Source: Mycobacteriales bacterium (GTDB taxonomy: Bacteria; Actinomycetota; Actinomycetes; JAFAQI01). Taken from it: a stretch of 64,000 bases of DNA. Within the stretch, counting starts at the first letter, position 1; each line of letters begins with the position of its first letter. The stretch spans positions 50,230 to 114,229 of the forward strand of contig DASZVL010000028.1 in NCBI GenBank assembly GCA_035547035.1, given 5' to 3'. A model generated the notes under the pieces. The model worked only from the letters and a program-made list of their open reading frames with translations. It was not told the DNA's origin and did not search any database. A program made the translations under genes and the position numbers. This document shows positions 20,065 to 48,805 of the stretch, piece by piece.

Positions 20065-20128
20065 CGTCGAGGCCAACGTTGATGGCCAAACGCAGCGCGT
20101 TTTTTGGCCCTTGTCGTTGGCCTCGACG
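20065..20128. repeat. nested palindromic intergenic element, copy A
   Basis: The outer 14-bp stem is CGTCGAGGCCAACG / CGTTGGCCTCGACG. It encloses an inner hairpin, GGCCAAACGC-AGC-GCGTTT(TTT)GGCC. The flanks match the copy at 57198-57259. Confidence 0.5.
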
Positions 20129-20143
20129 GTCTTGTGGCGTCCG

Positions 20144-34346: not shown

Positions 34347-35786
34347 TTACGCCTGTGACAGGCGCTCCGCGCGCAGCTGCGATCGGCGCACCTTCGCGGC
34401 GTCGTCGCGCAGCGGCTCGTCGACCCGCTCGAACGTCCGCGGCACCTTGTACTTCGTCAGCCGTTCGCTGCACCAGGCCCGCAGGCCGTCGTCGTCGATC
34501 TCCGCGTTGAGCTGGACGAGCGCGTGCAGCCGGTTGCCGAGGTCGTCGTCGGGCAGCCCGATCACACACGACGACATGACGGCCGGGTGCTCGTCGAGGG
34601 CCGCCTCGACCTCTGCGGGATACACGTTGCTGCCGCCGACCAGGACCATGTCGGTGAGCCGGTCGTTGAGATACAGGTAGCCGTCCTCGTCCATCCAGCC
34701 GAGATCGCCGAGGGACTCCCAACCGTCCTCGCGAACCCGAGCTTCGGCACCGATGTACTTGTACGTCGGACCGGCGTCGGACTTCAGCCACACCTCACCG
34801 ACCTCACCGGCCGGCAGCGGGTTGCCGTCGGAGTCGCAGATCTGCATCCGGCCGATCACCGGCCGGCCCACGGACCCGCGGTGCTCGAGCCACTCGACCC
34901 CGTTGATGAAGGTCGCGGCCTGCGCTTCGGTGCCGGCGTACAGCTCCATGATCCGCTCCGGGCCCAGCCAGTCGATCCACGCCTGCTTGAGGTACGGCGG
35001 GCACGGCGCCGCCATGTGCATCACGGTGTGCAGGCTTTCGAGGTCGTAGCGCAGCCGGACGTCCTCCGGCAGCTTCGAGATCCGCGACATCATCGTCGGC
35101 ACGAGGTAGACCCAACCGGCGCGGTGCCGCTCAATCAGCTGCAGCGTGGTCTCGGCATCGAACCGACCGGGCAGCACCACATGCCCGCCGGTGGCGAGCG
35201 TTGCGCTCGAGGTGAGAAACGGCCCGTTGTGGTGCATCGGCGCCGTGATCAGCGAGGTGTCGCCCGCCTTGATGCGCATCGCGGCCCCGAGAAGCGCGAG
35301 CCCTTCCGCCTCTGCGGGGTTCGTCGCGACGATCAGCTTCGGCCTGCCGGTCGAGCCGCCGGACATCGGCGCCTTCAGATTCGGTGACGTGACATCGGGA
35401 AGCGGCGCAGGCGCTGAGCCGGACGGCTCCGGGAGGCTCAGCAGCGACGGTGCAACGCCGCCGCCGTCGAAGCCGATGGCAACCGCGGGCTTTGCCAGCT
35501 CGAGCACCGCGTCGAGCTCAGCGCGCGGCATGTTGGCGGGCACCGGCTGCGGCGTCGCGCCGACGATCCACGTGGCCAGTGCCGCTACCAAGAAGGTCGC
35601 GTCCGTCGGCAACCCGATCGACACGAGGTCGCCGACAACGACGCCGCGCGCGATCAGCTCATGGGCGACGACGTCGGACCACTCGATGACCTGCTTGCGA
35701 GTGAGTGTCGCCTTCGTGTCTGTGATCGCAGGCGCGTCCGGCGCAACGGCAGCAAGACTTCGAAACGCGGCGGGGATCGACGGCAC
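34347..35786 (-). CDS. AMP-dependent acyl-CoA synthetase/ligase
   Basis: ANL superfamily motifs are present: the AMP-binding MSGGSTGRPKLIV, YAGTEA, GDLGWMDEDGYLYL and VPRTFERVDEPLR. Confidence 0.85.
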   Translation of the reverse strand: MPSIPAAFRSLAAVAPDAPAITDTKATLTRKQVIEWSDVVAHELIARGVVVGDLVSIGLPTDATFLVAALATWIVGATPQPVPANMPRAELDAVLELAKPAVAIGFDGGGVAPSLLSLPEPSGSAPAPLPDVTSPNLKAPMSGGSTGRPKLIVATNPAEAEGLALLGAAMRIKAGDTSLITAPMHHNGPFLTSSATLATGGHVVLPGRFDAETTLQLIERHRAGWVYLVPTMMSRISKLPEDVRLRYDLESLHTVMHMAAPCPPYLKQAWIDWLGPERIMELYAGTEAQAATFINGVEWLEHRGSVGRPVIGRMQICDSDGNPLPAGEVGEVWLKSDAGPTYKYIGAEARVREDGWESLGDLGWMDEDGYLYLNDRLTDMVLVGGSNVYPAEVEAALDEHPAVMSSCVIGLPDDDLGNRLHALVQLNAEIDDDGLRAWCSERLTKYKVPRTFERVDEPLRDDAAKVRRSQLRAERLSQA

Positions 35787-35789
35787 GCT

Positions 35790-36500
35790 TTATGCACCCA
35801 CCATGCGCAGCGCGAGCTCGGCGTACTCGTCGCTCAGCTGCTCTGCGGAGATGTCGGACTGATACGGATACCACCGTGCGGCGTCGACACCCATGCTGGC
35901 CATGGCAAACAGAGTCGCAGGTCCGCTGCGGATCACGAACACACCTTGCTCGACTCCGCGAGCGAGCACCTCTTCCACGAGCCCGGCCGAGCGGCGACGG
36001 TTCGACTCGACATGAACCCTGGCGTCCGGCGGCAGGTGTCGCGCCTCGTGGTTGACCACGAGGCCGAGGTTCGGGAACTCGCAGTGCACCGTCACGTGGC
36101 ACTGAATCGCCGCCCGTAGCTGCTCGCGCGGCTCTGCCGGGGCGTTGACGATCGCCGCGATCAACCGCTCGAGGTGCGTCTCGAACCCGAGCATCACGAG
36201 CTCGGTCAGCATCGCGTCCTTCGACGGGAAGTGGTTGTAGAGGCTGGCTGACTGCATGCCGGCTTCTCCGGCGATGTCACGGATCGAGCTTGCGGCGAAG
36301 CCTTGCTCGGCGAAGAGCACCAAGCAGGCCTCGAGAACGCGCAGCTGGCCGAGGGTCAACCGGTCGGTCGGCGGGAGGGCGCGCGGGTCGAGATCGCTGC
36401 GCCAGCCGCGAGGTCTCGTCCCGCCGGCCGGCACCGCCGCAAGGCCCGCGTTGCGCTTCGCCACGCGCACCAGCAAACCGGTAACGAAGCCAGGAGTCAA
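35790..36500 (-). CDS. TetR family transcriptional regulator
   Basis: The HTH is ACLVLFAEQGFAASSIRDIAGEAGMQSASLYNHFPSK. The ORF-track start is a TTG at 36500; the true start may be further downstream. Confidence 0.75.
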   Translation of the reverse strand: MTPGFVTGLLVRVAKRNAGLAAVPAGGTRPRGWRSDLDPRALPPTDRLTLGQLRVLEACLVLFAEQGFAASSIRDIAGEAGMQSASLYNHFPSKDAMLTELVMLGFETHLERLIAAIVNAPAEPREQLRAAIQCHVTVHCEFPNLGLVVNHEARHLPPDARVHVESNRRRSAGLVEEVLARGVEQGVFVIRSGPATLFAMASMGVDAARWYPYQSDISAEQLSDEYAELALRMVGA

Positions 36501-36516
36501 CGATCGTTCGATAGTC
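36498..36516. promoter_or_regulatory. 19-mer CAACGATCGTTCGATAGTC, copy 1 of a direct repeat (candidate operator)
   Basis: Matches 36607-36625 at 17 of 19 positions. It lies at the TetR 5' end, in the divergent region. Confidence 0.35.
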
Positions 36517-36606
36517 CAACGCGGCGAAATCGCCCCGAGTCAGCCGCAGACAGCTGATTTACAGCCTCCCTTGACGCCAACGCAGGCGTCGTGGCTTACT
36601 TCTCGC

Positions 36607-36625
36607 CAACGATCGATTGATAGTC
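36607..36625. promoter_or_regulatory. 19-mer CAACGATCGATTGATAGTC, copy 2 of a direct repeat (candidate operator)
   Basis: Matches copy 1 at 17 of 19 positions. It lies 42 nt upstream of the lipoprotein start at 36667. Confidence 0.35.
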
Positions 36626-36666
36626 GACGACGACAGATTCAGCAAACCGTTGCCCAACGAGGTGCG

Positions 36667-38253
36667 ATGACGCCCAACCCATCTCGACGTCGAGCTCGCA
36701 GCATCACGGCGGGTGCCGGCGCTGCACTGGTCGTGCTGTCCGCGGCGGCGTGTGGCAGCACGGTGCGAAATGCACACGAGATCCTCGCGCAGCGCGCGCA
36801 GGCCGGGTACGACAGCGGCGCGCTCGGCAACGCGCCGACCCGCGTCGCTCCCACGGCATCGGCGCCGGGCGTCGCGGGCGGGAATCCCTCCGCCTCGACC
36901 GGCGCCGGCGACACGGCAGCCGGCGCGGTCGTGACACCGGGCGCGGCTCGCGGCACGCGCCGTGGCGCGACGCAGCCCCCGACGTCGACCACTACGCCGA
37001 CCAACGCCCCGAAACACCATGCCGCCGTGTTCACCGGGCCGGCGAAGCTCGCGCCGGTCGAGGTGGGAGTCGCCGTCTCACAGGATGTGGGCCAGTTCGC
37101 GAAGCTGTTCGGCGGAACGGCAGACGTCGGAAACCTCGAAACCGACTCCAACGCCGTGATCGCCTACATCAACAAGCACGGCGGGTTCGCCGGGCACGTC
37201 GTACGCCCGGTCTACTACTCGATCCAGCTGACCAGCACGCAGCCGTACTCCACGACGATGGCCGCGATCTGCAGCTCCTGGACGGAGGACCACAAAGTCG
37301 CGGCTGGGATCGCCGTCGGCTTCAACATTCCGAACGATCTCGCGCAGTGCTTGAGCGCCAAGCACATCCCGTACCTGTCGGGCGGCAACTACCTCCACGA
37401 CAGCACCTCCTACCAGCAGATTCCCTACCTGATCAGTCCGTACGAGGCCGGCACCGACGAGGTGATGTCGGCGCTGCTGCCGCACCTGCTCAACAGCGGC
37501 TGGCTCACCGCCAAGAGTCACGTCGGCGTACTGCTCGCCAGCAACGAGACCGCTGCGGTTCGGGCCTACAACAACGTCATCGTGCCGGAGCTCAAGGGGC
37601 GGGTTGCCGCTGTGACGCAGTACGGCGTCAACTTCCCCCCGTCGACCCAGGCCGCGGTCGCGACCTCGCAGACCATCTCGAACGACGAGCTCCACGCCCG
37701 TGCCAACGGGGTGACCAACGTGATCTTCCTCGCGCCGGGCGCCGAAGGCAGCTTCATCGACGACGCCTACCAGCAGAAGTGGTTTCCGAAGTACGCGATC
37801 ACGTCGTTCGACACCCCATGGGCGGGGACCCTCGCGCACAACAAGGAGGAGCGGGCAACGCTCGCCGGTTCGATCGGGATCGGCTGGCAACCAACGATGG
37901 ACGTCGGCACCTACGGCAACAACGTCTTCACCAACCCGGTGACCAGGACCTGCAACTCGATCCTCAAGCCGACCGGCCAGCTCACGAGCAACGTCCGCGA
38001 GTTCGCCGGCTACCAGTTCTGTGACGCCTTGCTGTCGGTGCAGGCGGCAGCCAACGCCTCAGGCGCGGCGAGCGTCGTCGGGCCCGCGATCCTTGCCGGC
38101 TACAACGCCCTCGGCACCTCGCACCCCGACGCGATGACCTTCGCCGAGCGCATCGACGCGCACCAGCACAACGGGGCGAGCGCGTTCCGGCCGCTGACCT
38201 ACTCCCCCAGCTGCAGCTGCTTCCGCTACACCGGCGGCCTCAGCAGCTTCTGA
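36667..38253 (+). CDS. Cys-rich PBP1/LivK-like substrate-binding lipoprotein, paralog 3
   Basis: Starts at the ATG at 36667 (MTPNPSRRRARSITAGAGAALVVLSAAACGS, with twin Arg and a lipobox). A linker of about 95 aa precedes the core VEVGVAVS...YINKHGGFAGHVVRPVYY. It ends in SCSCFRYTG. Confidence 0.7.
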   Translation: MTPNPSRRRARSITAGAGAALVVLSAAACGSTVRNAHEILAQRAQAGYDSGALGNAPTRVAPTASAPGVAGGNPSASTGAGDTAAGAVVTPGAARGTRRGATQPPTSTTTPTNAPKHHAAVFTGPAKLAPVEVGVAVSQDVGQFAKLFGGTADVGNLETDSNAVIAYINKHGGFAGHVVRPVYYSIQLTSTQPYSTTMAAICSSWTEDHKVAAGIAVGFNIPNDLAQCLSAKHIPYLSGGNYLHDSTSYQQIPYLISPYEAGTDEVMSALLPHLLNSGWLTAKSHVGVLLASNETAAVRAYNNVIVPELKGRVAAVTQYGVNFPPSTQAAVATSQTISNDELHARANGVTNVIFLAPGAEGSFIDDAYQQKWFPKYAITSFDTPWAGTLAHNKEERATLAGSIGIGWQPTMDVGTYGNNVFTNPVTRTCNSILKPTGQLTSNVREFAGYQFCDALLSVQAAANASGAASVVGPAILAGYNALGTSHPDAMTFAERIDAHQHNGASAFRPLTYSPSCSCFRYTGGLSSF

Positions 38254-38285
38254 TCCGACCTCCCGTTTCGAGATCCGAGGACCAC

Positions 38286-39086
38286 ATGCCATTCGCGACC
38301 AACAACGGAGTCCGGATCCACTGGCAGGAGGAGGGGGAAGGCACTCCCGTCCTGCTGATCATGGGCCACAAGTACAGCAGCGCCATGTGGTGGCCGGTGC
38401 TTCCGGCACTCACCGCGAAGCACCGGGTGGTGTGGTTCGACAACCGCGGCACCGGGAAGTCTGACGCACCGAAGACGGCGTCCGTGGCCGAGATGGTCGC
38501 GGACACGATCACGGTGATGGACGCCGCCGGCCTCGACTCGGCGCACGTCTGGGGCGTGTCGATGGGCGGAGGCATTGCCCAGCAGCTCGCGGTCAAGCAC
38601 CCGGAGCGGGTCCGCGGGCTGATCCTCGGCTGCACCGCCATCAAGACCGAGGTCACCACGGCGCACCCGATCCTGATGTCGATTCTCGCCAGGCTGCCGC
38701 TCGGCGCCGTCCGCGTTCTCGGTGGCAAGCGCTCTCTGGGCAACACACCGCCGGACATCGCGGCCAAGGACTACGCGATGCAGAAGAAGGACGAGTTCTC
38801 GCCGAGCGGGGTCGTTGCGCAGCACGTCGGCATCGCCGGATTCTCGATGACGCTCGAGGACGCGGCCGGCATCACGGCGCCGACCTTCGTGCAGCACGGC
38901 ACGGCCGACCCGCTGGTGCCGTACGACGCCGGGGTGCGGATCGCCGAGACGGTTCCAGGCGCCCGGTTGTCGACATTCGAGGGCGCGGCTCACAACTACC
39001 TGCTGTCCGACATCGGCCGTGCCGGTCGCGAGGCGCTCGAGTTCTTCGCCGAGGTCGACAGCGCACGCGCCACAACGAGCGCCTGA
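38286..39086 (+). CDS. alpha/beta hydrolase
   Basis: The 266-aa ORF has the elbow VWGVSMGGGIAQ and a C-terminal His region (GAAHNYLL). Confidence 0.8.
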   Translation: MPFATNNGVRIHWQEEGEGTPVLLIMGHKYSSAMWWPVLPALTAKHRVVWFDNRGTGKSDAPKTASVAEMVADTITVMDAAGLDSAHVWGVSMGGGIAQQLAVKHPERVRGLILGCTAIKTEVTTAHPILMSILARLPLGAVRVLGGKRSLGNTPPDIAAKDYAMQKKDEFSPSGVVAQHVGIAGFSMTLEDAAGITAPTFVQHGTADPLVPYDAGVRIAETVPGARLSTFEGAAHNYLLSDIGRAGREALEFFAEVDSARATTSA

Positions 39087-39090
39087 CCGA

Positions 39091-39564
39091 ATGCAACTGA
39101 CCACCGGCCGGCTTCTCGGCGCGACGGTCCTCACCGCCGCCTTGGTGATCGGTGTGTCCGGATGCAGCGGCCTGGAGTTCCAGCAGGATCGGCGGCTCAG
39201 CTTCACCTCGCCCGCGTCCGATCAGCTGACGAAGCTCCCGGTCACGCTGGCGTGGACGATGAAGGCTCCGGTCGGCGCGTACCGGTTCGGCGTGTTCGTC
39301 GACCAGCAGCCCATCAAGGTCGGCCGCAACGTCGACTCGGTGCTGCCCAGCGGCACCCGGCCCACCCGCGCCTTGTTCGCGGCGGCGGACGTCTATGTCA
39401 CGTCGGCGTCGTCGCTGACCTTGCGCAACATCCCCGATCTCGACAACGACCGATCGAGCCGGCAGCGGCACTGGGCGACGGTTGTGCTGCTCGACCGCTC
39501 CGGCAACCGGGTCAACGAGAGCGCCTGGACCCGGTCGTTCGACCTGCCGCGGAACAGCTCGTGA
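39091..39564 (+). CDS. hypothetical lipoprotein (157 aa)
   Basis: Starts at the ATG at 39091, 4 nt after the hydrolase stop. Has a lipobox (VIGVSGCSG). Its stop overlaps the next start (GTGA). No recognisable family. Confidence 0.6.
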   Translation: MQLTTGRLLGATVLTAALVIGVSGCSGLEFQQDRRLSFTSPASDQLTKLPVTLAWTMKAPVGAYRFGVFVDQQPIKVGRNVDSVLPSGTRPTRALFAAADVYVTSASSLTLRNIPDLDNDRSSRQRHWATVVLLDRSGNRVNESAWTRSFDLPRNSS

Positions 39565-41732
39565 CCGCGACGGTCGACGCCCCGAGCGACGCGACCAGCG
39601 AGTCGATGGCGCAGCGGCGCCGGTCCGCCCGCGCAACGCTGGGGCTGCAGGACGAGCAACCCGACGCCGGACCGCTCCGGCCGCTGCTCAAGTCCCACGG
39701 CGTCGGCCTCTACCCGATGATCGCGCTCGGCGTGCTCGGCTTCGTCGACCTGTTCCAGGGCAATGCGCTGACCGTCGTCGCGCCCGACATGAGCAGCACG
39801 CTGGGCTTGTCGTTCGGACTGATCGGGTTTGCCCGCGCCATGGGCTACCTCGCGTTCGCGCTCGCGCCGCTTCCGATGGCTGCACTCGCGCAGCGCCAAG
39901 GACGCCGCGTGATGTTGTGTCTCGTCACCGCGATCGGCTGGAGCCTCGTCACGCTGTTCACGGGTTTCGTGACCTCGCTGCTCGCGCTTGTCGTGGTCCT
40001 CGTCGCCGACGGGCTGTCCACCGGAAGTGTCCAGGCCCTTCACCCTCCGCTGCTCGCCGACATCTACCCGCCGCAGGCGAGGGTCCGCGTGCTGGGCTCC
40101 TACCGCGCCATCACGGTGCTCGGCCAGATCGTCGCGCCGCTGCTGGTGTCCCTGCTGACCGGACCGCTGCATCTCACCTGGCGCGGCGTGTTCCTCGTCC
40201 TCGGGCTGATCTCGGTGGCGAGCTCGCTGAGCGCGCTCGGGGTCCGCGACCCGGGCCCGGGCCGCTTCGACACCGAGCGGCTGCATGCCGCCGTACCGGC
40301 CTCCGACGCCGCGCCGCAGCTCGGGTTCTTCGAGATCATCCGACGGCTGCTGCTGATCCCGACGATCCAGCGCATCTGCACCGGCGTCCTCGCCTTCGGT
40401 GTGATCGCAATCCCGTTCACGACGTTCATGTCGACCTTCTTCGTCGAGCGATGGCATCTCGGCTCGGCCGCGCGCGGCCTGGTCGTGTCACTCGCCTACG
40501 GCGTGGCGATCGTCGGCCTGCTGATCTACAGCAAGCTGGCGGAGAACACCTTCATCACCAACCCGGCGAAGGTCGTGGCCCAGATCGGCTACGCGATCAT
40601 GGCGATCGGCATCTTCATTGCGCTGGCCGCGATCATGCCTTCGCTGATCGCCATGGTGGCGCTGTTCTCACTGGCCATCACCGCGTTCGTGCTCACGCTT
40701 CCCGGTGTCAACGCGGTCGTGCTGTCCGTCGTCGACGCCCGCTACCGCCCGCACGCGTCCGCGCTGGTCGGGATCGCGCTGGCGATCGGGAGCATCCTCG
40801 GCGTGCTTCTGCTCAGCGGCGTGTACTCGGCGTACGGGTCGACCGGCACGATGGTCTCGCTGCTGCTCCCCGGCCTCGCCGGCGGTCTCATCGTGCGATC
40901 GGCCAGACGGCTTGTCGACGCCGACATCGACGCGATGGTCGACACCATCCTCGAAGAGCAGGACCTTGCCGCGCTTCACGAAAGCGGCCGGCGGCCGGCA
41001 CAGCTCACTGCCCGAGGGCTCAACTTCTCCTACGGCAAGCTGCAGGTCCTCTTCGACGTCGACTTCACCGTTGACGAGGGCGAGATGGTCGCGCTGCTCG
41101 GGACCAACGGCGCCGGGAAGTCGACGCTGCTCAAGGTCATCTCCGGAATCGGGCTGCCGTCGGCAGGAACGGTTCGACTCGACGGCAACGACATCACCTA
41201 TCTGGACGCCGAGCGGCGAGTCCGGCTCGGCATCACGCAGATCCCGGGTGGTCGCGCGGTGTTCCGCCGGATGACGGTCGTCGAGAACCTTCGGGGATAC
41301 GGCTACACGCTCGGCGCCGACAAGAAGCGGGTCGACGAGGCGATCGACCGCTGCCTGTCGGTGTTCCCGCGCCTCGACGAGCGCAAGGGCTCGCTCGGCG
41401 CGACGCTGTCCGGCGGCGAGCAGCAGATGCTCGGCCTCTGCAAGGCGCTGATCCTCGAGCCGAAGATCCTGCTCATCGACGAGCTGTCTCTGGGCCTGGC
41501 GCCAGTGGTCGTCGGGCAGCTGCTCGACCTGGTCCGTGAGATCAACGCCACGGGAACCTCGGTCGTCCTCGTCGAGCAGTCGGTGAACATCGCCCTCTCG
41601 CTCGTCGATCACGCCTACTTCATGGAGAAGGGGCAGATCCGCTTCGACGGAGCCGCTGCCGACCTGCTCGGCCGCGACGACCTGCTACGCGCCGTCTTCC
41701 TCGACGGTGCCACCAAGGCAGGCGCACGGTGA
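39561..41732 (+). CDS. fusion protein: MFS-type membrane domain plus LivF-type ABC ATPase
   Basis: Starts at the GTG at 39561; an alternative ATG is at 39606. The N-terminal portion of about 470 aa is multi-span with MFS motifs (ALAQRQGRRVML, ADGLSTGSV, RVRVLGSYRAITVLGQIVAPLL). The C-terminus is an NBD with GTNGAGKST, LSGGEQQ and ILLIDELSLGL. Confidence 0.75.
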   Translation: MTATVDAPSDATSESMAQRRRSARATLGLQDEQPDAGPLRPLLKSHGVGLYPMIALGVLGFVDLFQGNALTVVAPDMSSTLGLSFGLIGFARAMGYLAFALAPLPMAALAQRQGRRVMLCLVTAIGWSLVTLFTGFVTSLLALVVVLVADGLSTGSVQALHPPLLADIYPPQARVRVLGSYRAITVLGQIVAPLLVSLLTGPLHLTWRGVFLVLGLISVASSLSALGVRDPGPGRFDTERLHAAVPASDAAPQLGFFEIIRRLLLIPTIQRICTGVLAFGVIAIPFTTFMSTFFVERWHLGSAARGLVVSLAYGVAIVGLLIYSKLAENTFITNPAKVVAQIGYAIMAIGIFIALAAIMPSLIAMVALFSLAITAFVLTLPGVNAVVLSVVDARYRPHASALVGIALAIGSILGVLLLSGVYSAYGSTGTMVSLLLPGLAGGLIVRSARRLVDADIDAMVDTILEEQDLAALHESGRRPAQLTARGLNFSYGKLQVLFDVDFTVDEGEMVALLGTNGAGKSTLLKVISGIGLPSAGTVRLDGNDITYLDAERRVRLGITQIPGGRAVFRRMTVVENLRGYGYTLGADKKRVDEAIDRCLSVFPRLDERKGSLGATLSGGEQQMLGLCKALILEPKILLIDELSLGLAPVVVGQLLDLVREINATGTSVVLVEQSVNIALSLVDHAYFMEKGQIRFDGAAADLLGRDDLLRAVFLDGATKAGAR

Positions 41733-44692
41733 CGCGCAGGCGAACGATTCGCAACGCCGCGCTCGCCGCCGGGTTGCTCGCCGCTGCGTTGCTGTTCGTG
41801 GAGCTCGTCCTCCCGCACACGATTCACGTGCCCGGCACAGCCAGCCACCGCTGGCAGACCCCGGCCTCGGTGCTCGTCCTCGGCCTCGCGACCGGTCTCG
41901 CCTATGGTCTGCTCGGGGTCGGCCTGGTGCTGATCTACCGGTCCAACCGGATCATCAACTTCGCGCACGGGCAGATGGGTGCCTTCGGCGCCGTCATCTT
42001 CGTCCTGCTCGTCACCAAGGCGCACTTCCCCTACTGGGTCGCGCTGGTCCCAGCGCTCGCCGTCGCCGGCCTTGTCGGAGCCCTGACCGACGCCGCCGTC
42101 ATCAGACGGCTCAGCAAGGCGCCACTCGTCATGAGCGTCGTCGCCACACTCGGCGTGGGCCAGTTCCTCGTCGTGTTCGGCGTCCTCATCTACCCCTCGG
42201 CAGGTGCCGGCTCGGTGTTCCCCGAGCCGCCCGGCATGCCGACCTTCAGCGTCGGCGCGTTCCAGGTGACCCCGGCGTACTCCGCGATGCTGATCCTCAG
42301 CCCGGTCGTCGTGGCGGCACTCGGGCTGTTCCTGCGCTACAGCCGGATCGGCGTCGCTATGCGCTGCGCCGCCGACAACCCCGAGGCGGCCCGGATGGCG
42401 GGCATCTTCTCCGGCCGGATGTCGGCGCTTGCCTGGGCGCTCGGCGCATCCGTCGCGGCGTTCGCGGCGATCCTCACCGCGCCGACGCACAGCGTGTCGC
42501 CGGGAGACTTCGGGCCCCAGCTCCTCGAGGTGTCCCTCGCGGCCGCGGTGATCGGGCGGACCGAGAACCTCCCGGTGACGCTCGTGGCGGGCTCGGTCAT
42601 CGGCGTGATCGAACAGCTGCTCCTGTGGAACTATCCCGGCTCCGGCGTCGAGTACCTGGTGCTGTTCGTGCTGATCGTCGCCGCGCTCATCCTGCAGCGC
42701 TCCCGGACCGGACGGACCGAGGAGAAGGGGTCGTGGGTCGCGATACAGGCGCCGCCGGCCATCCCCGCGCGACTGCGTGTGCTTCGGACCGTCAGAGCAA
42801 TCAACCCGACGATCCTCCTCGTCACCGTGGTCGGACTCGCGCTGCTGCCGATGGGCATGAAGGACGCCAGCGCCGTGACGCTGACCTCGATCTTCGCCCT
42901 GGTCGTCGTCGGTTTCTCGATGGGTGTCGTCACAGGGCTCGCCGGGCAGCTCACCCTCGGCCAGTTCGCGATCGCCGCAGTCGGCGCGATCGCAAGCTTC
43001 GAGGTGGCGTCTCGCACGCACGACTATGTGCTGTCGTTCCTGTACGCCGGGGTCGCGGCGGCGTTGGCCTTCGTCCTGATCGGGTTGCCCGCCATCCGCG
43101 TCAAGGGCCTGATGATCACCGTGACGACGCTGTCGTTCGCGCTGCTGATGTCCAACTGGCTGCTCCCGGAGCCGTGGTTGTTCGGCGTGGACGGGAAGAC
43201 GCCCGGAACACCGTCTGTCCTCGGCGCACAGCTCAACACCGGTAAGCGCTACTACTGGCTCGCACTCGTGCTGACGGTCCTGGCGCTCCTGATCGCCCGC
43301 AACCTCCGGTCGGCCGGACTCAGCCGGCTGTTCGTCGCGGTACGGGACAACGAGGACGCCGCACGCGCATTCACCGTCCCGGTGACGATGGTGAAGCTGC
43401 AAGGGTTCGCGATCTCCGGCTTCATCGCCGGGATCGGTGGCGCGATGTATGCGCACTCGCTGTTCACGGTGGGTGAGGCGAGCTTCACCCCGAACCTCAG
43501 CGTCTTCACGGTCACGGTCATGACGGTGATCGGGGGTCTCGGCTTGCTCACCGGACCGATCCTCGGCGCGCTCGTCGTCCTCGTACTGCCGTCGTTCGTG
43601 CATCTAGGCAGCCTCGCCCTTGCCGGCACCGCGCTCGGCCAGCTGCTGATCGTGATGTACCTCCCGGGTGGCATCGGCCACCTCGTCACGCCCCTTCGCG
43701 ATCGCGTGGTGAAGGCGATCGGGCGGCGCGCCGGCGTCGACGTCGACGCGGCGTACCTGGCCGAGTCGAGCAGCGCCGCGGCCGACGACTTCGCGGCCCC
43801 GACGGTCGCACCACCCCTCGCGATCACGAAGCACCCGATCGGTGCCCGACCGATCCTCGAGGCAAGCGGGCTGGTCAAGTCGTTCGGCGGCGTGCACGCG
43901 GTCCGGGGTGTGTCGATCACGGTGCATCGCGGGGAGACGCTCGGGCTCATCGGCCCGAACGGCGCCGGCAAGACGACGACGTTCGAGCTCCTCACCGGCT
44001 TCACGAAGCCGGACGCCGGTCAGGTCCGGCTTCGTGACGAGGACGTCACCGCGGCCACCCCGGAGGCCCGCGGCCGGCTCGGATTGATCCGCAGCTTCCA
44101 GGACGCAGCGTTGTTCCCCACTCTCACCGTTCTCGAGTGTGTCCAGCTCTCCCTCGAGCGGACCGACCCGAGCACCGTGACGGCAGCCGTCCTCGGCCTG
44201 ACCGGTCGCGAGCGCCGCAAGGAGCAGCGGGCGCGTGACCTGGTCGCGTGGATGGGTCTGGATCGTTATCGCTCGATGCAGGTCCAGTCGCTGTCGACCG
44301 GAACCCGTCGCATCGCGGAGATCGCGTGCCTCGTCGGGTTGGGCCCGGAAGTGCTTCTGCTCGACGAGCCGTCAGCCGGCGTCGCCCAGCGAGAGACCGA
44401 GGCGCTGCAGCAGCTGCTCGAGACCCTCAAGGAAGATCTCGACCTCACGCTGTGCGTCATCGAGCACGACATCCCGATGATCATGTCGATGGCGGACCGC
44501 ATCGTGTGCATGGCTGACGGCGAGATCATCGCCGAAGGCTCGCCGGACATCGTGCGGACCGACCCGCGCGTGGTCGAGTCCTACCTCGGCGGCAGCATCA
44601 CCGCGATCCAGCGGTCGGGAAGCGTCGCGCACGACGGAGAACCACCCGCGCAACGAAGCCGCGGGCCCGCCTTGGTGAGGACGGCAGGATGA
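41729..44692 (+). CDS. triple fusion: LivH-like permease plus LivM-like permease plus LivG-like ABC ATPase
   Basis: The 987-aa ORF has a LivH region (GLAYGLLGVGLVLIYRSNRIINFAHGQMG), a LivM region (VVTGLAGQLTLGQFAIAAVGA) and an NBD (GPNGAGKTT, LSTGTRRIAEIA, LLLDEPSAGV). Both junctions overlap by 4 nt. Confidence 0.8.
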   Translation: MTRRRTIRNAALAAGLLAAALLFVELVLPHTIHVPGTASHRWQTPASVLVLGLATGLAYGLLGVGLVLIYRSNRIINFAHGQMGAFGAVIFVLLVTKAHFPYWVALVPALAVAGLVGALTDAAVIRRLSKAPLVMSVVATLGVGQFLVVFGVLIYPSAGAGSVFPEPPGMPTFSVGAFQVTPAYSAMLILSPVVVAALGLFLRYSRIGVAMRCAADNPEAARMAGIFSGRMSALAWALGASVAAFAAILTAPTHSVSPGDFGPQLLEVSLAAAVIGRTENLPVTLVAGSVIGVIEQLLLWNYPGSGVEYLVLFVLIVAALILQRSRTGRTEEKGSWVAIQAPPAIPARLRVLRTVRAINPTILLVTVVGLALLPMGMKDASAVTLTSIFALVVVGFSMGVVTGLAGQLTLGQFAIAAVGAIASFEVASRTHDYVLSFLYAGVAAALAFVLIGLPAIRVKGLMITVTTLSFALLMSNWLLPEPWLFGVDGKTPGTPSVLGAQLNTGKRYYWLALVLTVLALLIARNLRSAGLSRLFVAVRDNEDAARAFTVPVTMVKLQGFAISGFIAGIGGAMYAHSLFTVGEASFTPNLSVFTVTVMTVIGGLGLLTGPILGALVVLVLPSFVHLGSLALAGTALGQLLIVMYLPGGIGHLVTPLRDRVVKAIGRRAGVDVDAAYLAESSSAAADDFAAPTVAPPLAITKHPIGARPILEASGLVKSFGGVHAVRGVSITVHRGETLGLIGPNGAGKTTTFELLTGFTKPDAGQVRLRDEDVTAATPEARGRLGLIRSFQDAALFPTLTVLECVQLSLERTDPSTVTAAVLGLTGRERRKEQRARDLVAWMGLDRYRSMQVQSLSTGTRRIAEIACLVGLGPEVLLLDEPSAGVAQRETEALQQLLETLKEDLDLTLCVIEHDIPMIMSMADRIVCMADGEIIAEGSPDIVRTDPRVVESYLGGSITAIQRSGSVAHDGEPPAQRSRGPALVRTAG

Positions 44693-44997
44693 AACGTCTG
44701 GTCACTTCGCTACGCCGGATTCCACACCTCGGGACGTGGCTAGGACTCGTGCTCGTCGCGGTCGGCTTCGTCCTCATCACCGTCGCGTGGGGACAGACCG
44801 CCGGCGAGATCGACGTACCGCTGCAGCTGCCGTACGTCATGAGCGCGGGCTTCTCCGGATTGGCGCTCGTGTGCCTGGGAGTGACCTCAGTCGCCGTCGA
44901 CGTCCGGCTCCGCGACTCCGCAGCACGGCAGGCGCAGTCACGACGCGTGAGCGACGCGCTCGACGAGCTCGTCCGGCTGAGCGAGCAGGGCCGATGA
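44689..44997 (+). CDS. hypothetical 2-TM small membrane protein (102 aa)
   Basis: Its ATG overlaps the upstream stop (ATGA). It has two hydrophobic spans and a charged C-terminal tail. It is paralogous in layout to the next gene (PYVMSAGFSGLALVCLG versus PALVSGGIGGIALVITG). Confidence 0.55.
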   Translation: MKRLVTSLRRIPHLGTWLGLVLVAVGFVLITVAWGQTAGEIDVPLQLPYVMSAGFSGLALVCLGVTSVAVDVRLRDSAARQAQSRRVSDALDELVRLSEQGR

Positions 44998-45353
44998 AGC
45001 GGCCGACGCCCCTCGCGACGACGTTGCTGTGGTGCGGCCTGCTCATCTGCGGCGGCATCGCGTCGATCTCGGTCGGCTATGCGATGGTGGCGCGGACGCT
45101 CGACGTGTTCGACCAGGTCCCGGCATTGGTCAGCGGCGGGATCGGTGGCATCGCGCTGGTGATCACGGGCTGCGTCCTCGGGTACGTGCAGATCGGCAGG
45201 GCGTGCACCGAACGGGAACGCGGCGCCGACGACCACGTGCTCGACCGGATCGGCGCCCTCGCCGAGATCGAGCGGCGACGGATAGCCGCGCAGGACGCCC
45301 GGCCGCCGAAGCAACGGACTGGTCGCGCACCGGCGAAGCGGGCATCCGCATGA
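44994..45353 (+). CDS. hypothetical 2-TM small membrane protein (119 aa)
   Basis: Starts at the ATG at 44994, overlapping the upstream stop. It has two hydrophobic spans and an Arg/Glu-rich tail. Confidence 0.55.
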   Translation: MKRPTPLATTLLWCGLLICGGIASISVGYAMVARTLDVFDQVPALVSGGIGGIALVITGCVLGYVQIGRACTERERGADDHVLDRIGALAEIERRRIAAQDARPPKQRTGRAPAKRASA

Positions 45354-46303
45354 CGCTCGCCGGACTGGTCATCGTGCCGATCGTGTTCGTGGGCCCATCC
45401 GTCGCACCGTCGACGGCGCACCTCGCCTCAAGCAGCCGGACCGCGCCGGTCGCGCTCGGCACCGAGGCCTGGTACAGCAGCCCGCAGATCTGCGTGATCC
45501 CCCAGGTCTGTCTGCCGATCAGGTCGCCCATCACGACGACGTACCCGGTTCACACGCTTCACATCGCGGCCGCCGGCGGGAACGAGTCGGCGCGGACCTA
45601 CCTCGAGCTTCGCGAGCCGATCGCCCCCACCACTGTGGTGACCGGCGGAGTCCTGCGGCTGCCCCTCGACACCAGTCCGGCCGATGGGTCGGTGGCACCA
45701 GACCTCGCGAAGGTCGAAGCCTGTACGACGCGCACGCCGATCAAAGCGGTAGAAGGCTCGACCGCGAAGCCTCCGGCCACGGACTGCCGCAATGCCCCGA
45801 CAAGTCGCGTCATCGGCACTCCCGCCAGCGAGCTCGACATCGACCTCGGCCCGATCGGCTCACGGCTGCAACACCCCGGGACGGGTCTCGCGCTGCTGCC
45901 GGTCCTCTCACCGGCCGCGACGTGGGACGTGACGCTGTCGTCGAACCTGCGCGCCAAGTCGTCGGCGACGACGCCGGTCCTGATCCTGACCACCAGGGAC
46001 GAGTTGCCGCAGTCCTCGACGACGGCCACGCCGCCGGAGTCGGCAAGCCGACGCCAAAGCGCGACTGGCGACGAGCCGCTGATTCCCGCTGGGCCGGTCG
46101 ACGTCGAGCCGCAGACGAGCGAGGTTCCCGGCGCCGCGGTGAGCGCGCCCCAGATAGCGCCGACGCGACCGACGGCGTTCAAGGTCGGGCGCCACGGATT
46201 CGACTACCCGGTCGTCTTCCTCACACCACTGCTGATCCTGGCCGGACTGATCGCGTTCGGCCGGCAGCTCACCCGCCCGCTCACCAGGCAACCAGGCAGC
46301 TAG
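45350..46303 (+). CDS. hypothetical secreted protein with C-terminal membrane anchor (317 aa)
   Basis: Starts at the ATG at 45350, overlapping the upstream stop. It has an N-terminal hydrophobic signal (MTLAGLVIVPIVFVGPSVAPSTAHL), four Cys, a Ser/Thr/Pro-rich spacer, and a terminal TM (VVFLTPLLILAGLIAFG) followed by basic residues. Confidence 0.55.
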   Translation: MTLAGLVIVPIVFVGPSVAPSTAHLASSSRTAPVALGTEAWYSSPQICVIPQVCLPIRSPITTTYPVHTLHIAAAGGNESARTYLELREPIAPTTVVTGGVLRLPLDTSPADGSVAPDLAKVEACTTRTPIKAVEGSTAKPPATDCRNAPTSRVIGTPASELDIDLGPIGSRLQHPGTGLALLPVLSPAATWDVTLSSNLRAKSSATTPVLILTTRDELPQSSTTATPPESASRRQSATGDEPLIPAGPVDVEPQTSEVPGAAVSAPQIAPTRPTAFKVGRHGFDYPVVFLTPLLILAGLIAFGRQLTRPLTRQPGS

Positions 46304-46321
46304 GCAGCTAGGCAGCTAGGC
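46295..46321. repeat. tandem 8-mer GGCAGCTA x3.4 giving TAG in all six frames
   Basis: Read directly from the sequence. TAG occurs at 46301, 46309 and 46317 on the plus strand. The palindromic CTAG core gives three TAGs on the minus strand as well. The first TAG is the stop of the 45350-46303 gene. Confidence 0.85.
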
Positions 46322-46360
46322 GCCGTAACCGGCAGGTTGCTGTCACCTCGCGGCCGGTGA

Positions 46361-46441
46361 TCGCATGTCACATAGATGTCGTGATCGACGACTCGCGTGT
46401 CACACAGCGGCTGCATTTCACGACACGCATGTGACATGCGA
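46361..46441. repeat. long imperfect hairpin rich in TGTCACA/TGTGACA words
   Basis: The arms are TCGCATGTCACAT-AGA-TGTCGTGA and TCACGACA-CGC-ATGTGACATGCGA (13 bp, a 3-nt internal loop, then 8 bp) with a 33-nt apical region containing a third TGTCACACAGC. It lies between convergent genes. Confidence 0.6.
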
Positions 46442-46459
46442 ACGCGCTGACACCACCAC

Positions 46460-47767
46460 CTAGGCGCCGAACACCTGATTCGTGTAGACGTTGCTGAACA
46501 CCCGGTTCGGGTCGACCCGGTCACGGACCTTCATCGCATCGTCGAAGTGCGGATACCGCTCGCGAAGCGTCGCGGCGTCAAGCCAGTGCAGCTTCCCCCA
46601 GTGCGGCCGGCCGCCGACCTCGGCGGCGATCGACTCGACCGCGCGGAAGTAAGGCTCGTAGTCCACCCGATGCCACTGATGGACGGCGAGGTAGCCGCTG
46701 GCCCGTCCCGACGCGGTCGACAGCCAGATGTCATCGGCTGCGGCGACCCGCACCTCGACCGGGAAGGAGATGACCTCGCCGCTGCTCTCGATCCACGACC
46801 GCACCGAGCGGAACACATCCACCAGCCGTTCGCGGGGGACGGCGTACTCCATCTCGCGGAACCGCACCCGGCGCGGCGACACGAAGACGCGGTGCGACAC
46901 GTCGGTGAAGGTGCGCGCCGACAGCGCGCGAGCGGACAGCCGGTTGAAGCCGGGGATCGCCGTCGGGCGGCGATAGGCGATCCGCTGCACCGCCTCGAAG
47001 ACGCCGTTGGACAACAGCTCGTCGTCGAGCCACTCGCGCCATCGCGGTAGCTGCTTGCCCGGCTCGCCCGGCTCCGGCCGGTTGTTGCGCTTGGTGAGCG
47101 CGACGTCGGTGTGCGGGAACCAGTAGAACTCGAAGTGCTCGTTGCCGTCGGCCAGGGAGTCGAAGTCCTCGAGCACCTGCTGCAGCGGCATCGGTTGCTC
47201 GACCGCGGTGAGCCGAAACAGCGGCTCGCACTGCAGCGTGACCGCCGTGACGATCCCGAATGCACCGATGCCGACCCGCGCCGCCTGGAACAGCTCGGGA
47301 TCGGAGGTTTCGGCAACCTCGACCGTGGAGCCGTCCGCCAGCACCAGCTGAAGGCCGCGGACCTGCGTGGCGAGGCCGCCCAGCTTCGCGCCGGTCCCAT
47401 GGGTGCCGGTGGAGATCGCACCAGCGACGGTCTGGGCGTCGATGTCACCGAGATTGGTCATCGACAGACCGCGCGTCTCGAGCTCGGCGTTGAGCCGGTG
47501 CAGCGGCGTGCCGGCGCCAACCGTGACCAGCCCGCTCTCGGCGTCGGCCGACAAGATGCCGGCGAGGTTGTCGAGGCGCAGCTGGATGTCCTCGGCTACC
47601 GCCGTCGCGGTGAAGCTGTGGCCGGCGCCAACCGCCTTGACGGTCCGGCCGTCTTCCGCGGCGCGCTCGACGAGCAGGGCAACGGCGTCGACCGTGGCCG
47701 GGATGGCGACCTCACGAGGGTACGAAGACTGGTTGCGACCCCAGTTGTGCCACAACTCGTGACCCAC
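46460..47767 (-). CDS. FAD-linked oxidoreductase, D-arabinono-1,4-lactone oxidase / L-gulonolactone dehydrogenase family
   Basis: Starts at the GTG at 47767. Has the FAD-PCMH domain motif VKAVGAGHSFT and the C-terminal ALO domain motif GGRPHWGK. Confidence 0.8.
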   Translation of the reverse strand: MGHELWHNWGRNQSSYPREVAIPATVDAVALLVERAAEDGRTVKAVGAGHSFTATAVAEDIQLRLDNLAGILSADAESGLVTVGAGTPLHRLNAELETRGLSMTNLGDIDAQTVAGAISTGTHGTGAKLGGLATQVRGLQLVLADGSTVEVAETSDPELFQAARVGIGAFGIVTAVTLQCEPLFRLTAVEQPMPLQQVLEDFDSLADGNEHFEFYWFPHTDVALTKRNNRPEPGEPGKQLPRWREWLDDELLSNGVFEAVQRIAYRRPTAIPGFNRLSARALSARTFTDVSHRVFVSPRRVRFREMEYAVPRERLVDVFRSVRSWIESSGEVISFPVEVRVAAADDIWLSTASGRASGYLAVHQWHRVDYEPYFRAVESIAAEVGGRPHWGKLHWLDAATLRERYPHFDDAMKVRDRVDPNRVFSNVYTNQVFGA

Positions 47768-47800
47768 GAACGATCACCGTCCTTCGGATACGTTGCGCGG

Positions 47801-48805
47801 GTGCGGCTCGACGAGATCACGACCCCGGCCCTGATCGTCGACTCGGCCGCGCTCGATCGCAACCTAGCGACCATGGCGCAGGCCTGGCCCGGTCGGTCGC
47901 TGCGCCCACACGTGAAAGCGCACAAGACGACAGGGATCGCGAAACGTCAGGCAGCACTCGGCCACACCGGGTTCACCTGCGCCACGACTCGCGAGGTCGA
48001 GGTGATGGCGGGCGCCGGGCTCGGCATAGACCTGCTGCTGGCCAACGAGGTCGTCGACATGCGGCGGCTCGGCGCGGTCGTCGACGCCGGAGCGCGGGTG
48101 ACAGTCGCCATCGACTCCGAGGCGACTGTCACGGCGGCGGTCGCGGGTGGGGTCCGCGAGGTGCTCGTCGACGTCAACGTCGGTACGCCGCGATGCGGCT
48201 GCCCGCCCGAGCAAGCCGGCCGGCTCGCCGACCGCGCGCGATCCGCCGGGCTCGAGGTCCGTGGCGTCATGGGCTACGAGGGCCACGTCATGTTCGTCGA
48301 GGAGCCGGGCGAGCGGAAGGGGCAGACCGACGAGGCAATGCGCCTGCTGGCCGCCGCGCATGCCGATGTCGGCGGCGACATCATCTCCGGCGGCGGCACC
48401 GGCACGTGGCGGACGAACGACGGCGTGAGCGAGCTACAGGCGGGTTCCTACGCGTTGATGGACACGGAGTACCGCAAGCTCCCAGATGTCACGTTCGAGC
48501 AGGCACTGACCGTGCTCGCGACAGTCATCTCGGTAGGCGACGGGTGGGTGGTGGCCGACGCAGGACTCAAGGCGTTCGGCATGGATCACGGCAATCCCGC
48601 GCTGCCGGGCATGCTCATCTGGTACTGCTCGGACGAGCATGTCGTCTTCTCGGCCGAGGAAGGCCAGGCACTGCCGTCAGTCGGCGATCGAGTCCGGCTC
48701 GAACCGGCCCACATCGACCCGACCTGTGCGCTGCACGAGCGGATGCACGTCGTCGACGGCGACGCGATCATCGACGAGTGGCCTGTCGACATGCGCGGCT
48801 GGTGA
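47801..48805 (+). CDS. alanine-racemase-fold PLP enzyme (DSD1 / D-threonine aldolase-like)
   Basis: Starts at the GTG at 47801. Has TPALIVDSAALDRNL, the PLP lysine in RPHVKAHKT, and a C-terminal D-serine-dehydratase-like domain. Confidence 0.7.
   Translation: MRLDEITTPALIVDSAALDRNLATMAQAWPGRSLRPHVKAHKTTGIAKRQAALGHTGFTCATTREVEVMAGAGLGIDLLLANEVVDMRRLGAVVDAGARVTVAIDSEATVTAAVAGGVREVLVDVNVGTPRCGCPPEQAGRLADRARSAGLEVRGVMGYEGHVMFVEEPGERKGQTDEAMRLLAAAHADVGGDIISGGGTGTWRTNDGVSELQAGSYALMDTEYRKLPDVTFEQALTVLATVISVGDGWVVADAGLKAFGMDHGNPALPGMLIWYCSDEHVVFSAEEGQALPSVGDRVRLEPAHIDPTCALHERMHVVDGDAIIDEWPVDMRGW

Follow-up and report, generated by a model that had tools for sequence, protein, structure and literature searches.

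Importers of the ATP-binding cassette (ABC) type and carriers of the major facilitator superfamily (MFS) are textbook cases of separate energy-coupling principles. Among the binding-protein-dependent ABC importers, the HAAT family (TC 3.A.1.4) includes LivJ/K-LivHMGF, BraCDEFG, UrtABCDE and the amide/urea systems. Among MFS proteins, Rv1410 is an exporter or extractor of triacylglycerides. It works with the lipoprotein LprG, which is encoded just upstream of rv1410c (PMC6519032). The locus described here combines elements of both kinds of transporter. It lies in a 64,000-nucleotide stretch of DNA (hereafter the window; G+C ~69%) from a Mycobacteriales bacterium (assembly GCA_035547035.1, contig DASZVL010000028.1, positions 50,230 to 114,229). 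Eight plus-strand genes at 36667-46303 of the window, designated g1 to g8 (Table 1), probably form a TetR-repressed operon for a condensed and augmented binding-protein-dependent ABC importer of the HAAT family, with g4 and g5 encoding its fused ATPases and permeases.

Fused transporter proteins

A preliminary description of this DNA, made from the letters and open reading frames (ORFs) alone, had called g4 an MFS::LivF fusion and g5 a LivH::LivM::LivG fusion, and both are borne out by Pfam domain matches. In g4, a full MFS domain (residues ~45-430) is followed by a conserved acidic linker and a LivF-type ATPase (~480-720). The MFS_1 match spans residues 58-414 and profile positions 3-346 of 347, with 119.6 bits against a cut-off of 33.4. 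The C-terminal domain matches ABC_tran (Pfam, E-value: 2e-29), and its best NCBIfam model is LivF (E-value: 2.3e-56), although the score of 190.9 bits against a cut-off of 441 supports this assignment at the family level only. Two BPD_transp_2 stretches (PF02653, E-value: 2.5e-45) make up the permease part of g5, one UrtB/LivH-like (residues 49-329) and the other UrtC/LivM-like (residues 359-666). These are followed by ABC_tran (E-value: 5.7e-28) and BCA_ABC_TP_C (PF12399, E-value: 1.1e-8) domains. The g5 ATPase matches the LivG model (E-value: 1.7e-58) with 197.9 bits against a cut-off of 362 and so cannot be classified as an equivalog. Both proteins have ATPases with intact Walker A, Walker B and signature motifs. 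Scores for the Urt equivalog models are also under their cut-offs (UrtB 92 vs 250, UrtC 68 vs 296, UrtD 188 vs 304 and UrtE 179 vs 286 bits). Identity as a urea (Urt) or classical Liv system was ruled out, since each equivalog score is far under its cut-off.

A protein search with g4 gave 537 matches at E <= 1e-10. The best 120 of these were inspected, and all are full-length MFS+ABC fusions of ~670-780 aa with 56-80% identity to g4, from metagenome-assembled genomes (MAGs) labelled Mycobacteriales, Frankiales, Actinomycetota and Acidimicrobiales. The annotation of these fusions is limited to the names "MFS transporter", "transporter" or [quoted passage not shown]. Nothing relevant to an MFS-LivF or MFS-ABC fusion, or to fused Liv systems in actinobacteria, came up in full-text literature searches. 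In some relatives (the loci L002/L016, 12274-15915 and 15912-16700, and a JGI contig) there are lineage-specific extensions, with a LivHMG protein of 1043-1213 aa and a g6 homologue of 262 aa; one extended LivHMG relative has weak helix-hairpin-helix (HhH) motifs.

The MFS domain shows 63% mean column identity among relatives that are 48-72% identical. By sequence, it matches the PDB entries of the Spinster homologue HnSpns (6e8j, E-value: 2e-9), DgoT (6e9n, E-value: 3e-8) and an Rv1410 homologue (8pnl, E-value: 6.9e-5, N-domain only); the identities of 6e8j and 8pnl were confirmed in the corresponding papers (PMC9440201, PMC10576003). Motif A, located between transmembrane helices (TM) 2 and 3 and canonically G-x-L-A-D-R-x-G-R-R, reads A-A-L-A-Q-R-Q-G-R-R in g4. 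Its Arg residues are kept (R116 is invariant), and the position of the Asp is occupied by Q, R, A or S in the alignment of relatives.

The MFS half could form a second pathway, be gated by ATP or serve g3 as a scaffold. One alternative to the augmented importer proposed here, which we consider unlikely, is that the MFS domain is an autonomous secondary carrier that was fused to LivF for co-expression or stoichiometry and has g3 as its private accessory. Such a carrier could transport the same compound by proton symport when its concentration is high, or it could export or exchange (antiport) a hydrolysis product. The full-length MFS_1 match well above the gathering score favours this interpretation, as does the similarity to the organic-anion carriers DgoT and PgtP, the nearest families. 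In addition, many polar or charged intramembrane residues are invariant among relatives with 48-72% identity (D63, Q66, D150, H161, D167, R174 and R396), which points to a functional cavity and not simply an anchor. However, every g4 homologue seen is fused and retains the linker motif M-[IV]-D-x-[IV]-L-E-E-x-D. The MFS domain has no stand-alone form among these homologues, and no unfused gene pair was seen, which argues for mechanical or regulatory coupling. The loss of the motif A Asp also speaks against an autonomous carrier.

Gene organization

The start and stop codons of all eight ORFs were found where the preliminary description had placed them, and the spacing that it gave is also right: 32 nt between g1 and g2, 4 nt between g2 and g3, and then five 4-nt overlaps (GTGA at g3/g4 and g4/g5; ATGA at g5/g6, g6/g7 and g7/g8). 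Third-position GC is 0.8-0.95 in the assigned frame of each gene, and the frame switches in the codon-position GC plot coincide with the gene junctions. A sigma-70 consensus scan returned no promoter-like sites inside the block. Terminator-like sites number six, a total at chance level (3.0 ± 1.8 expected), and the sole plus-strand site, at 43157, is weak. Because convincing internal promoter and terminator sites are missing from these scans, a single operon is plausible. There is no Rfam match (riboswitch or leader RNA) within 35500-47000. The extra subunits had been described as uncharacterised, and this is consistent with the database searches: five of the eight products (g1, g3, g6, g7 and g8) fall into no Pfam or NCBIfam family, with nothing usable in Pfam (E up to 10) or NCBIfam.

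Table 1. Features of the transporter locus and related genes in the window, in order of position.
Feature	Position	Strand	Description
Third g1-type binding protein	7912-9756	+	PF13458, E-value 1.6e-7
Second g1-type binding protein	24922-26427	-	PF13458, E-value 2e-12; 27% identical to g1
Acyl-CoA ligase	34347..35786	-	AMP-binding (2e-46) and AMP-binding_C; directly downstream of the TetR gene, in the divergent unit
TetR-family repressor	35790..36500	-	TetR_C_24 (4.5e-24) and TetR_N (2.5e-14) in Pfam; divergent
Operator-like box 1, CAACGATCGTTCGATAGTC	36498..36516	.	Overlaps the TetR start codon; direct repeat family D1
Promoter-like block, CCTTGAC...GGCTTACTTC	36571..36602	+	Invariant columns in a four-locus alignment; -35-like TTGACG at 36571-36576
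Operator-like box 2, CAACGATCGATTGATAGTC	36607..36625	.	42 nt upstream of the g1 start, just downstream of the promoter-like block
g1	36667..38253	+	528-aa lipoprotein; predicted divergent cluster-B (LivK/Peripla_BP_6-type) binding protein
g2	38286..39086	+	Alpha/beta-fold serine hydrolase, cytoplasmic (esterase, lactonase or amidase type)
g3	39091..39564	+	157-aa lipoprotein; beta-sandwich domain; gene invariably beside that of MFS::LivF
g4	39561..41732	+	723-aa MFS::LivF fusion
g5	41729..44692	+	987-aa LivH::LivM::LivG triple fusion
g6	44689..44997	+	102 aa; 2-TM hairpin and cytoplasmic C-terminal helix; uncatalogued family
g7	44994..45353	+	119-aa paralogue of g6
g8	45350..46303	+	317-aa type-I membrane protein; stalked beta-sandwich
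Tandem repeat, (AGGCAGCT)n	46294..46319	.	8-nt unit, three copies; contains the g8 stop; repeat family D1
Imperfect hairpin	46361..46441	.	Arms 46361-46384 / 46418-46441, between the convergent g8 and FAD-oxidase genes
FAD-linked sugar-lactone-oxidase-type oxidoreductase	46460-47767	-	TIGR01679, above cut-off
D-Ser-dehydratase / 3-hydroxy-D-aspartate-aldolase-like pyridoxal-phosphate (PLP) enzyme	47111-48805	+	

Conservation of gene order

When one genome per species was scanned with an MFS-domain profile, for which the acidic linker was one of two search patterns, 31 loci were obtained. Among them are loci of the cultured Nonomuraea sp. NPDC046570, of three Streptomyces sp. isolates and of an Ilumatobacteraceae MAG. 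For synteny, the window proteins were compared by tblastn with 35 genome or MAG loci, and called genes were read in some of them. The core g3-g4-g5 is adjacent, in this order, in all 35, which comprise MAGs of Mycobacteriales/Frankiales and of Acidimicrobiia (L028) as well as the cultured Nonomuraea and Streptomyces. Where called genes were read, the g3/g4 and g4/g5 pairs overlap by 4 nt (once by 1 nt). On an Acidimicrobiales contig, an MFS::ABC gene is followed by LivHMG, two small genes and a larger gene, again with 4-nt overlaps. Conservation of gene order in related genomes, which the preliminary description had named as a check, is therefore seen: the order and the 4-nt overlaps are kept down to ~30% identity and across two actinobacterial classes.

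Two broader points of that description stand in part. As a single unit of eight genes, the block has a universal core in g3-g4-g5, but g2 and the terminal trio g6-g8 vary, and g6/g7 occur with conventional permeases as well. The association of the trio with fused liv genes elsewhere, which it had suggested looking for, was found in 20 distinct loci (at least g6 and g8), but the trio went undetected in the cultured Streptomyces and Nonomuraea.

Predicted binding protein g1 and its paralogues

The lipobox Cys of g1 (Cys29) is followed by a low-complexity tether of ~100 residues, as read from the sequence. The label "PBP1-like" given to this protein derives from its family: PF13458 is matched individually by 10 of 22 aligned g1 homologues and paralogues, and a g1 family profile matches HAAT binding proteins in the PDB (4gnr, E-value: 2e-5). 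As g1 directly matches nothing, the label is transitive only, and it is by transitive homology that g1 is predicted to be a divergent lipid-anchored LivK-type binding protein. The description of g1 as Cys-rich also needs qualification, as the protein has only seven Cys: the lipobox Cys, four that are invariant across relatives (202, 228, 429 and 452) and a largely conserved C-terminal CxC. A g1-type gene is located upstream of the core in most loci and is often duplicated. In two of the three Streptomyces loci (L031, 14990-16507; L032, 10683-12065), a gene for a thioredoxin domain fused to leucine-rich repeats follows LivHMG in the place of the trio. This gene may be related to the conserved disulfides of the binding protein.

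Two further g1-type binding proteins are encoded in the window. The second (Table 1) belongs to a minus-strand gene string with 26424-28058, 22967-24925 and 20144-22117, which encode a DUF885 protein and two S9 prolyl oligopeptidases. The third is located downstream of an amidase and an alpha/beta hydrolase (5436-7289 and 6560-8227, plus strand), in a region (5436-9756) where long ORFs overlap and ORF starts are uncertain. Both paralogues are in operons without permease genes; the string of the second is also without an ATPase gene, and the third likewise has no transporter genes with it. These orphan binding proteins probably feed the g4/g5 pump. In L022, a second, convergent g1-g1-g8-g6 set without transporter genes (17101-21300, minus strand) is found beside the main cluster. 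This arrangement suggests that g8 and g6 accompany not only the permease but also the binding proteins.

Lipoprotein g3

The g3 gene is directly upstream of MFS::LivF in 41 of the 41 loci with upstream sequence (in L035, with a 62-nt gap between the two), and for five of these loci the g3/g4 junction was read as abutting or overlapping. Both g3 and the MFS domain are absent from conventional Liv loci that carry a g6-type gene. From this co-occurrence and joint absence, g3 tracks the MFS domain. An AlphaFold2 model of g3 (predicted local distance difference test [pLDDT] 78.5) shows an all-beta sandwich over residues 36-153, behind the lipobox. Foldseek matches this model to generic beta-sandwiches only (lytic polysaccharide monooxygenase, p53, fibronectin type III and the GM2 activator GM2AP; E-values >= 2.5e-3, TM-scores <= 0.39).

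The MFS-g3 pair raises a second alternative, which we judge distinctly unlikely: a lipid or amphiphile module in which the MFS domain and g3 move lipid between the membrane and the envelope, in the manner of Rv1410-LprG or Spinster. The Liv-type ABC half would give energy or take up the polar head-group product, and the system would function in envelope lipid traffic or scavenging rather than nutrient uptake. HnSpns and the Rv1410 homologue (8pnl, 7e-5) are among the closest solved relatives of the MFS domain, but this similarity is mostly in the generic N-domain and DgoT scores about equally well. The position of a lipoprotein gene directly upstream of the MFS gene is the same as in lprG-rv1410c (PMC6519032), and g3 has weak Foldseek matches to the lipid-binding GM2 activator. 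However, the TM-score to GM2AP is only ~0.27, and among the 50 listed Foldseek matches of g3 there is no LprG or LppX entry. The neighbourhoods are rich in lipase/esterase, acyl-CoA ligase, acyl-CoA dehydrogenase and enoyl-CoA hydratase genes, as would be appropriate for a lipid module, whereas the LivK-type binding protein and the BPD_transp_2 permease point to an importer of soluble small molecules.

Small membrane proteins g6 and g7 and stalked protein g8

The paralogy proposed for g6 and g7 is supported by BLASTP (39% identity over the 49 aa of the TM hairpin, E-value: 9e-8). Their family comprises 643 representative clusters at E <= 1e-3 (50% clustering), and in its alignment an extracytoplasmic loop carries the conserved motif Q-x-P-Y-x-x-S-x-G, while a helix on the cytoplasmic side is rich in Arg. 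No consistent Pfam family was found for the 33 members scanned. Matches to holin, claudin and DctQ in family members were scattered single cases and were rejected as chance, and the DUF7269 and MFS_2 matches of g6 itself (E ~0.02) were dismissed as hydrophobic noise. Natural tandem fusions of g6 and g7 exist as single polypeptides (for example P0171, P0174, P0178 and P0183). These argue for a g6:g7 dimer, and g7 is the probable heterodimer partner of g6. Some of the fusions (P0171 and P0220) end in a segment Y-H-x-x-T-C ... C-x-x-C-x-P, which presumably resembles the Ada-type zinc-binding motif. Such a tail is a hint of an additional cytoplasmic element that binds metal or DNA.

With the g6 motif (narrow alignment) as the seed, a metagenome scan gave 80 further loci, ~25 of which have enough flanking sequence to be informative. 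A Liv-type permease adjoins g6 in 23 of these ~25, and 10 of the 23 have the full set of g3, MFS::LivF and LivHMG. In another group (L097, L099, L106-110 and L113; ~10.0-15.8 kb, high-GC contigs), a single g6-like gene is directly upstream of a conventional LivH/M-LivG-LivF set. The Liv proteins of this group are unfused or partly fused and 28-31% identical to g5, and the loci are without MFS or g3. The g6 family thus tracks Liv-type permeases generally, beyond the MFS systems, and can be classified as an unrecognised 2-TM accessory of a wider set of Liv-type transporters.

The g8 protein had been described as secreted and C-terminally anchored, and it does have an N-terminal hydrophobic signal and a C-terminal TM helix. 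Its AlphaFold2 model (pLDDT 79.6 overall, >90 over most of the ectodomain) consists of a signal peptide, an ectodomain resembling a jelly roll or carbohydrate-binding module (CBM; residues ~29-217), a disordered Pro-rich stalk of ~70 residues and a TM anchor (helix 287-307). Conserved features are Cys residues 48, 54, 125 and 146 of the ectodomain and a GFDYP...GRQLTRPL sequence in the anchor region. In Foldseek, the model is most similar to a chondroitin-sulfate-binding CBM (8wab, E-value: 7e-5, TM-score 0.67).

A third alternative, which appears highly unlikely, is that g6-g8 serve a separate envelope function, such as wall anchoring or stress sensing, and are merely co-transcribed with the transporter genes. 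Such independence would be consistent with the Streptomyces, Nonomuraea and some MAG loci, which retain g3-g4-g5 and in which the trio is undetected. It would also be consistent with the variable order and strand of the trio (g8-g6-g7 in L021-23, an inverted g8 in L027 and a divergent unit with the binding protein in L035) and with L093, where g6-like genes have no Liv genes within 10 kb. However, the 4-nt overlaps with g5 are kept in several lineages, and g8 homologues with only 30-32% identity are still always found beside the MFS::ABC and LivHMG genes. The g6 family is, moreover, located beside Liv-type permeases in nearly all of the informative metagenome loci, including a divergent clade without MFS.

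Putative regulatory region and block ends

The preliminary description had also reported a divergent TetR gene with duplicated 19-mers. The gene was found, and the two 19-mers (boxes 1 and 2 in Table 1) are identical at 17 of 19 positions. A TetR homologue occupies the same divergent position in many related loci. In L001, L003 and L005, the CAACGATCG-T-GAT core of box 1 is kept in place and box 2 is conserved. The promoter-like block between the boxes is possibly the promoter of the transporter operon, one that the sigma-70 scan did not call. Because the boxes and the block are conserved in these three loci, the arrangement fits autoregulation of TetR together with repression of the transporter operon, in which the repressor would bind at both boxes.

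At the other end of the block, both structures noted earlier are present. The tandem repeat places TAG in all three frames of both strands, but it is probably the incidental result of replication slippage, because L001 has only a 16-nt gap at this position. The hairpin has 24-nt arms that are 88% complementary, and the RNA fold of 46300-46460 has an energy of -68.2 kcal/mol (z = -2.96; 0 of 200 shuffles as good). It was not called by a simple terminator scan because it has no T-tract. This structure is probably either a bidirectional terminator or an mRNA-stabilising element.

Hydrolase g2, neighbouring enzymes and substrate

In Pfam, g2 matches Abhydrolase_1 (E-value: 5e-27) and Hydrolase_4 (E-value: 1e-20), and its NCBIfam matches are all far under cut-off. 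The sequence contains a GVSMGG nucleophile elbow and no signal peptide, and most hydrolases in the equivalent slot of other loci are also without a signal peptide. The proposed order of capture, hydrolysis and import therefore has to be changed. Extracellular hydrolysis before import was rejected on these grounds, and the missing signal peptide of g2 indicates that hydrolysis would follow import.

The g2 gene is inside the operon only in the closest relatives (L001, L003, L004 and L005). Other loci have their g2 homologue next to TetR on the opposite strand, or else in an upstream or downstream position. An Abhydrolase_3 esterase takes the slot in L021-23 and L030, and PF00144, Amidohydro_3 or GDSL genes are found after the cluster in L017, L018, L009, L014 and L005. 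Thus, g2 is not a fixed subunit, and elsewhere its slot is filled by non-orthologous esterases or amidohydrolases.

In a census of 112 flanking ORFs from 24 loci, the leading classes were PF00144 (10), PucR-type regulators (8), Abhydrolase_3 / COesterase (4), amidohydrolases (4), AMP-binding ligases (3), MR_MLE (3) and GDSL (3). Three linked enzymes are encoded beside distant homologues: an M20 deacylase, a D-aminoacylase-type amidohydrolase and an enzyme of the o-succinylbenzoate synthase (OSBS)/N-succinylamino-acid-racemase type (TIGR01928, above cut-off). The Nonomuraea locus neighbours an amidase, an acyl-CoA ligase, an enoyl-CoA hydratase and an M29 aminopeptidase, and the Streptomyces loci neighbour M1, M16 and S8 peptidases. 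Because hydrolases of ester and amide bonds recur beside the transporter, its substrates might tentatively be sought among small conjugates in which an amino acid or organic acid is held by an ester or amide bond, such as N-acyl amino acids, esters and peptides that are short or unusual.

Two pairs of neighbouring genes in the window are also found in L001. The first is the TetR gene and the acyl-CoA ligase gene of the divergent unit. The ligase is most similar to BaiB/FadD4-like proteins among the NCBIfam models, all under their curated cut-offs. It is probably co-regulated with the transporter and may act on the acid that is set free from the imported compound. The second pair, the FAD-linked oxidoreductase and PLP enzyme genes downstream of the cluster, is possibly linked to D-amino-acid metabolism.

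Proposed model

The proposed model for the importer is as follows. The transporter proper would be a heterodimer in which g5 gives both permease domains and the LivG ATPase, and g4 gives the LivF ATPase tethered to the MFS domain. Substrate would be captured by g1, which would dock on LivH/LivM, and g3 would act as the extracytoplasmic partner of the MFS domain. The small proteins g6 and g7 are predicted to form a 4-TM heterodimer associated with the Liv permease. On its Pro-rich stalk, g8 would hold the CBM-like beta-sandwich out in the wall, where it may serve for the pre-capture or docking of substrate or binding proteins. After ATP-driven import, cytoplasmic g2 (or the other esterases and amidohydrolases of relatives) would cleave an ester or amide bond, and the divergent acyl-CoA ligase would then activate the released acid. 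Gene structure, domain content, the patterns of conservation and co-occurrence and the predicted folds are established by the analysis, whereas the substrate, the direction of transport, what the MFS domain does, the physical contacts of g3, g6, g7 and g8, and a single transcript are inferred.

A stronger form of this model is a hybrid primary/secondary transporter, which we regard as unlikely. Here the closure of LivG-LivF would act on the MFS domain too, giving an ATP-gated pathway or a lateral hand-over of amphiphiles, with g3 as an extracellular cap and g6, g7 and g8 as a wall-spanning capture platform. If true, this would be a new class of multi-component uptake machine in monoderm Actinomycetota, with a possible role in scavenging N-acylated or D-amino-acid-containing conjugates from soil necromass. 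An artefactual origin of the fusions (frameshifts or mis-joined ORFs in a metagenomic contig), which might be considered for an apparently uncultured source organism, is scarcely credible, as the same architecture and length are found in >100 independent homologues, among them isolate genomes and long-read MAG contigs as long as 3 Mb, and third-position GC is continuous over the domain boundaries.

Several points weigh against the proposed model of an augmented HAAT importer. The predicted binding protein g1 has no direct Pfam or PDB match even at E = 10 (PDB searched by phmmer), and g3 has neither a Pfam or NCBIfam family match nor an informative structural match. The LivF, LivG and UrtB-E models are far under their cut-offs, so the substrate is not transferable from Liv or Urt systems. 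As the motif A Asp is not conserved, the MFS domain may not cycle like a normal carrier. The trio was undetected by tblastn in 6 of ~28 informative genome loci (L020, L026, L028 and L031-33), including all of the cultured ones, and is thus not essential to the core mechanism. The neighbourhoods are heterogeneous, with peptidases in Streptomyces, esterases or lipases elsewhere and acyl-CoA enzymes in others. Finally, the single operon is plausible from the gene overlaps only.

With a full MFS domain fused in a conserved manner to an ABC ATPase, the mechanistic question is what the MFS half does: it might regulate, act as a scaffold or form a second pathway. The fusion is found in at least 120 protein clusters from two actinobacterial classes, each time together with a dedicated lipoprotein. 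In addition, the operon defines three families without a Pfam entry: the g3 lipoprotein, the g6/g7 2-TM proteins (~640 representative clusters) and the g8 stalked beta-sandwich. Genomically, all three behave as transporter accessories, and to our knowledge such accessories are not known for HAAT systems. The loci are common in soil and freshwater actinobacterial MAGs, where they are set among hydrolases, and may mark a significant unannotated uptake route for ester- and amide-linked organic nitrogen and carbon. The cultured carriers (the Nonomuraea and Streptomyces isolates, for instance Streptomyces sp. NPDC005483, which has the core only) make the core experimentally tractable.

Comparison with known systems

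The general layout of the locus is similar to that of Mce systems, in which an ABC importer core and several small membrane-anchored accessory proteins encoded downstream are also part of the same operon. However, the two have no sequence or fold relationship: the permease family is a different one, MlaD/Mce and YrbE domains are missing here, and Mce systems are without a substrate-binding protein.

With LprG-Rv1410, the locus shares an actinobacterial setting, a lipoprotein gene coupled directly upstream of an MFS-domain gene and the sequence similarity to 8pnl. In contrast, g3 is a 157-aa all-beta sandwich with no match of the LprG/LppX type, and the MFS domain is fused to an ABC ATPase inside an importer operon. 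Because g3 is without the LprG-type fold, this parallel is a functional analogy only.

Spinster- and ACS-type MFS carriers (HnSpns, DgoT) give the best PDB and NCBIfam matches to the MFS domain (E-values: 2e-9 to 5e-15), which has a full-length MFS_1 match. Nevertheless, the similarity is low and mostly in the N-domain, the motif A Asp is not kept, a nucleotide-binding domain is covalently attached, and a stand-alone form was not seen.

The closest relationship is to the HAAT systems. These share with the locus two BPD_transp_2 domains, a LivG-type ATPase with BCA_ABC_TP_C, a LivF-type ATPase and, by prediction, a type-I (Peripla_BP_6-related) binding protein, and ATP-driven uptake dependent on this protein is presumed here as well. 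The differences are that LivH, LivM and LivG form one polypeptide in this locus and that LivF has an N-terminal MFS domain of the 12-TM class. In addition, the binding protein is larger (528 aa), disulfide-rich and too divergent for PF13458, and four extra envelope proteins (g3, g6, g7 and g8) have no HAAT counterpart. Judged by its domain content, which agrees with that of the family, the system is predicted to be a variant of the HAAT-family importers.

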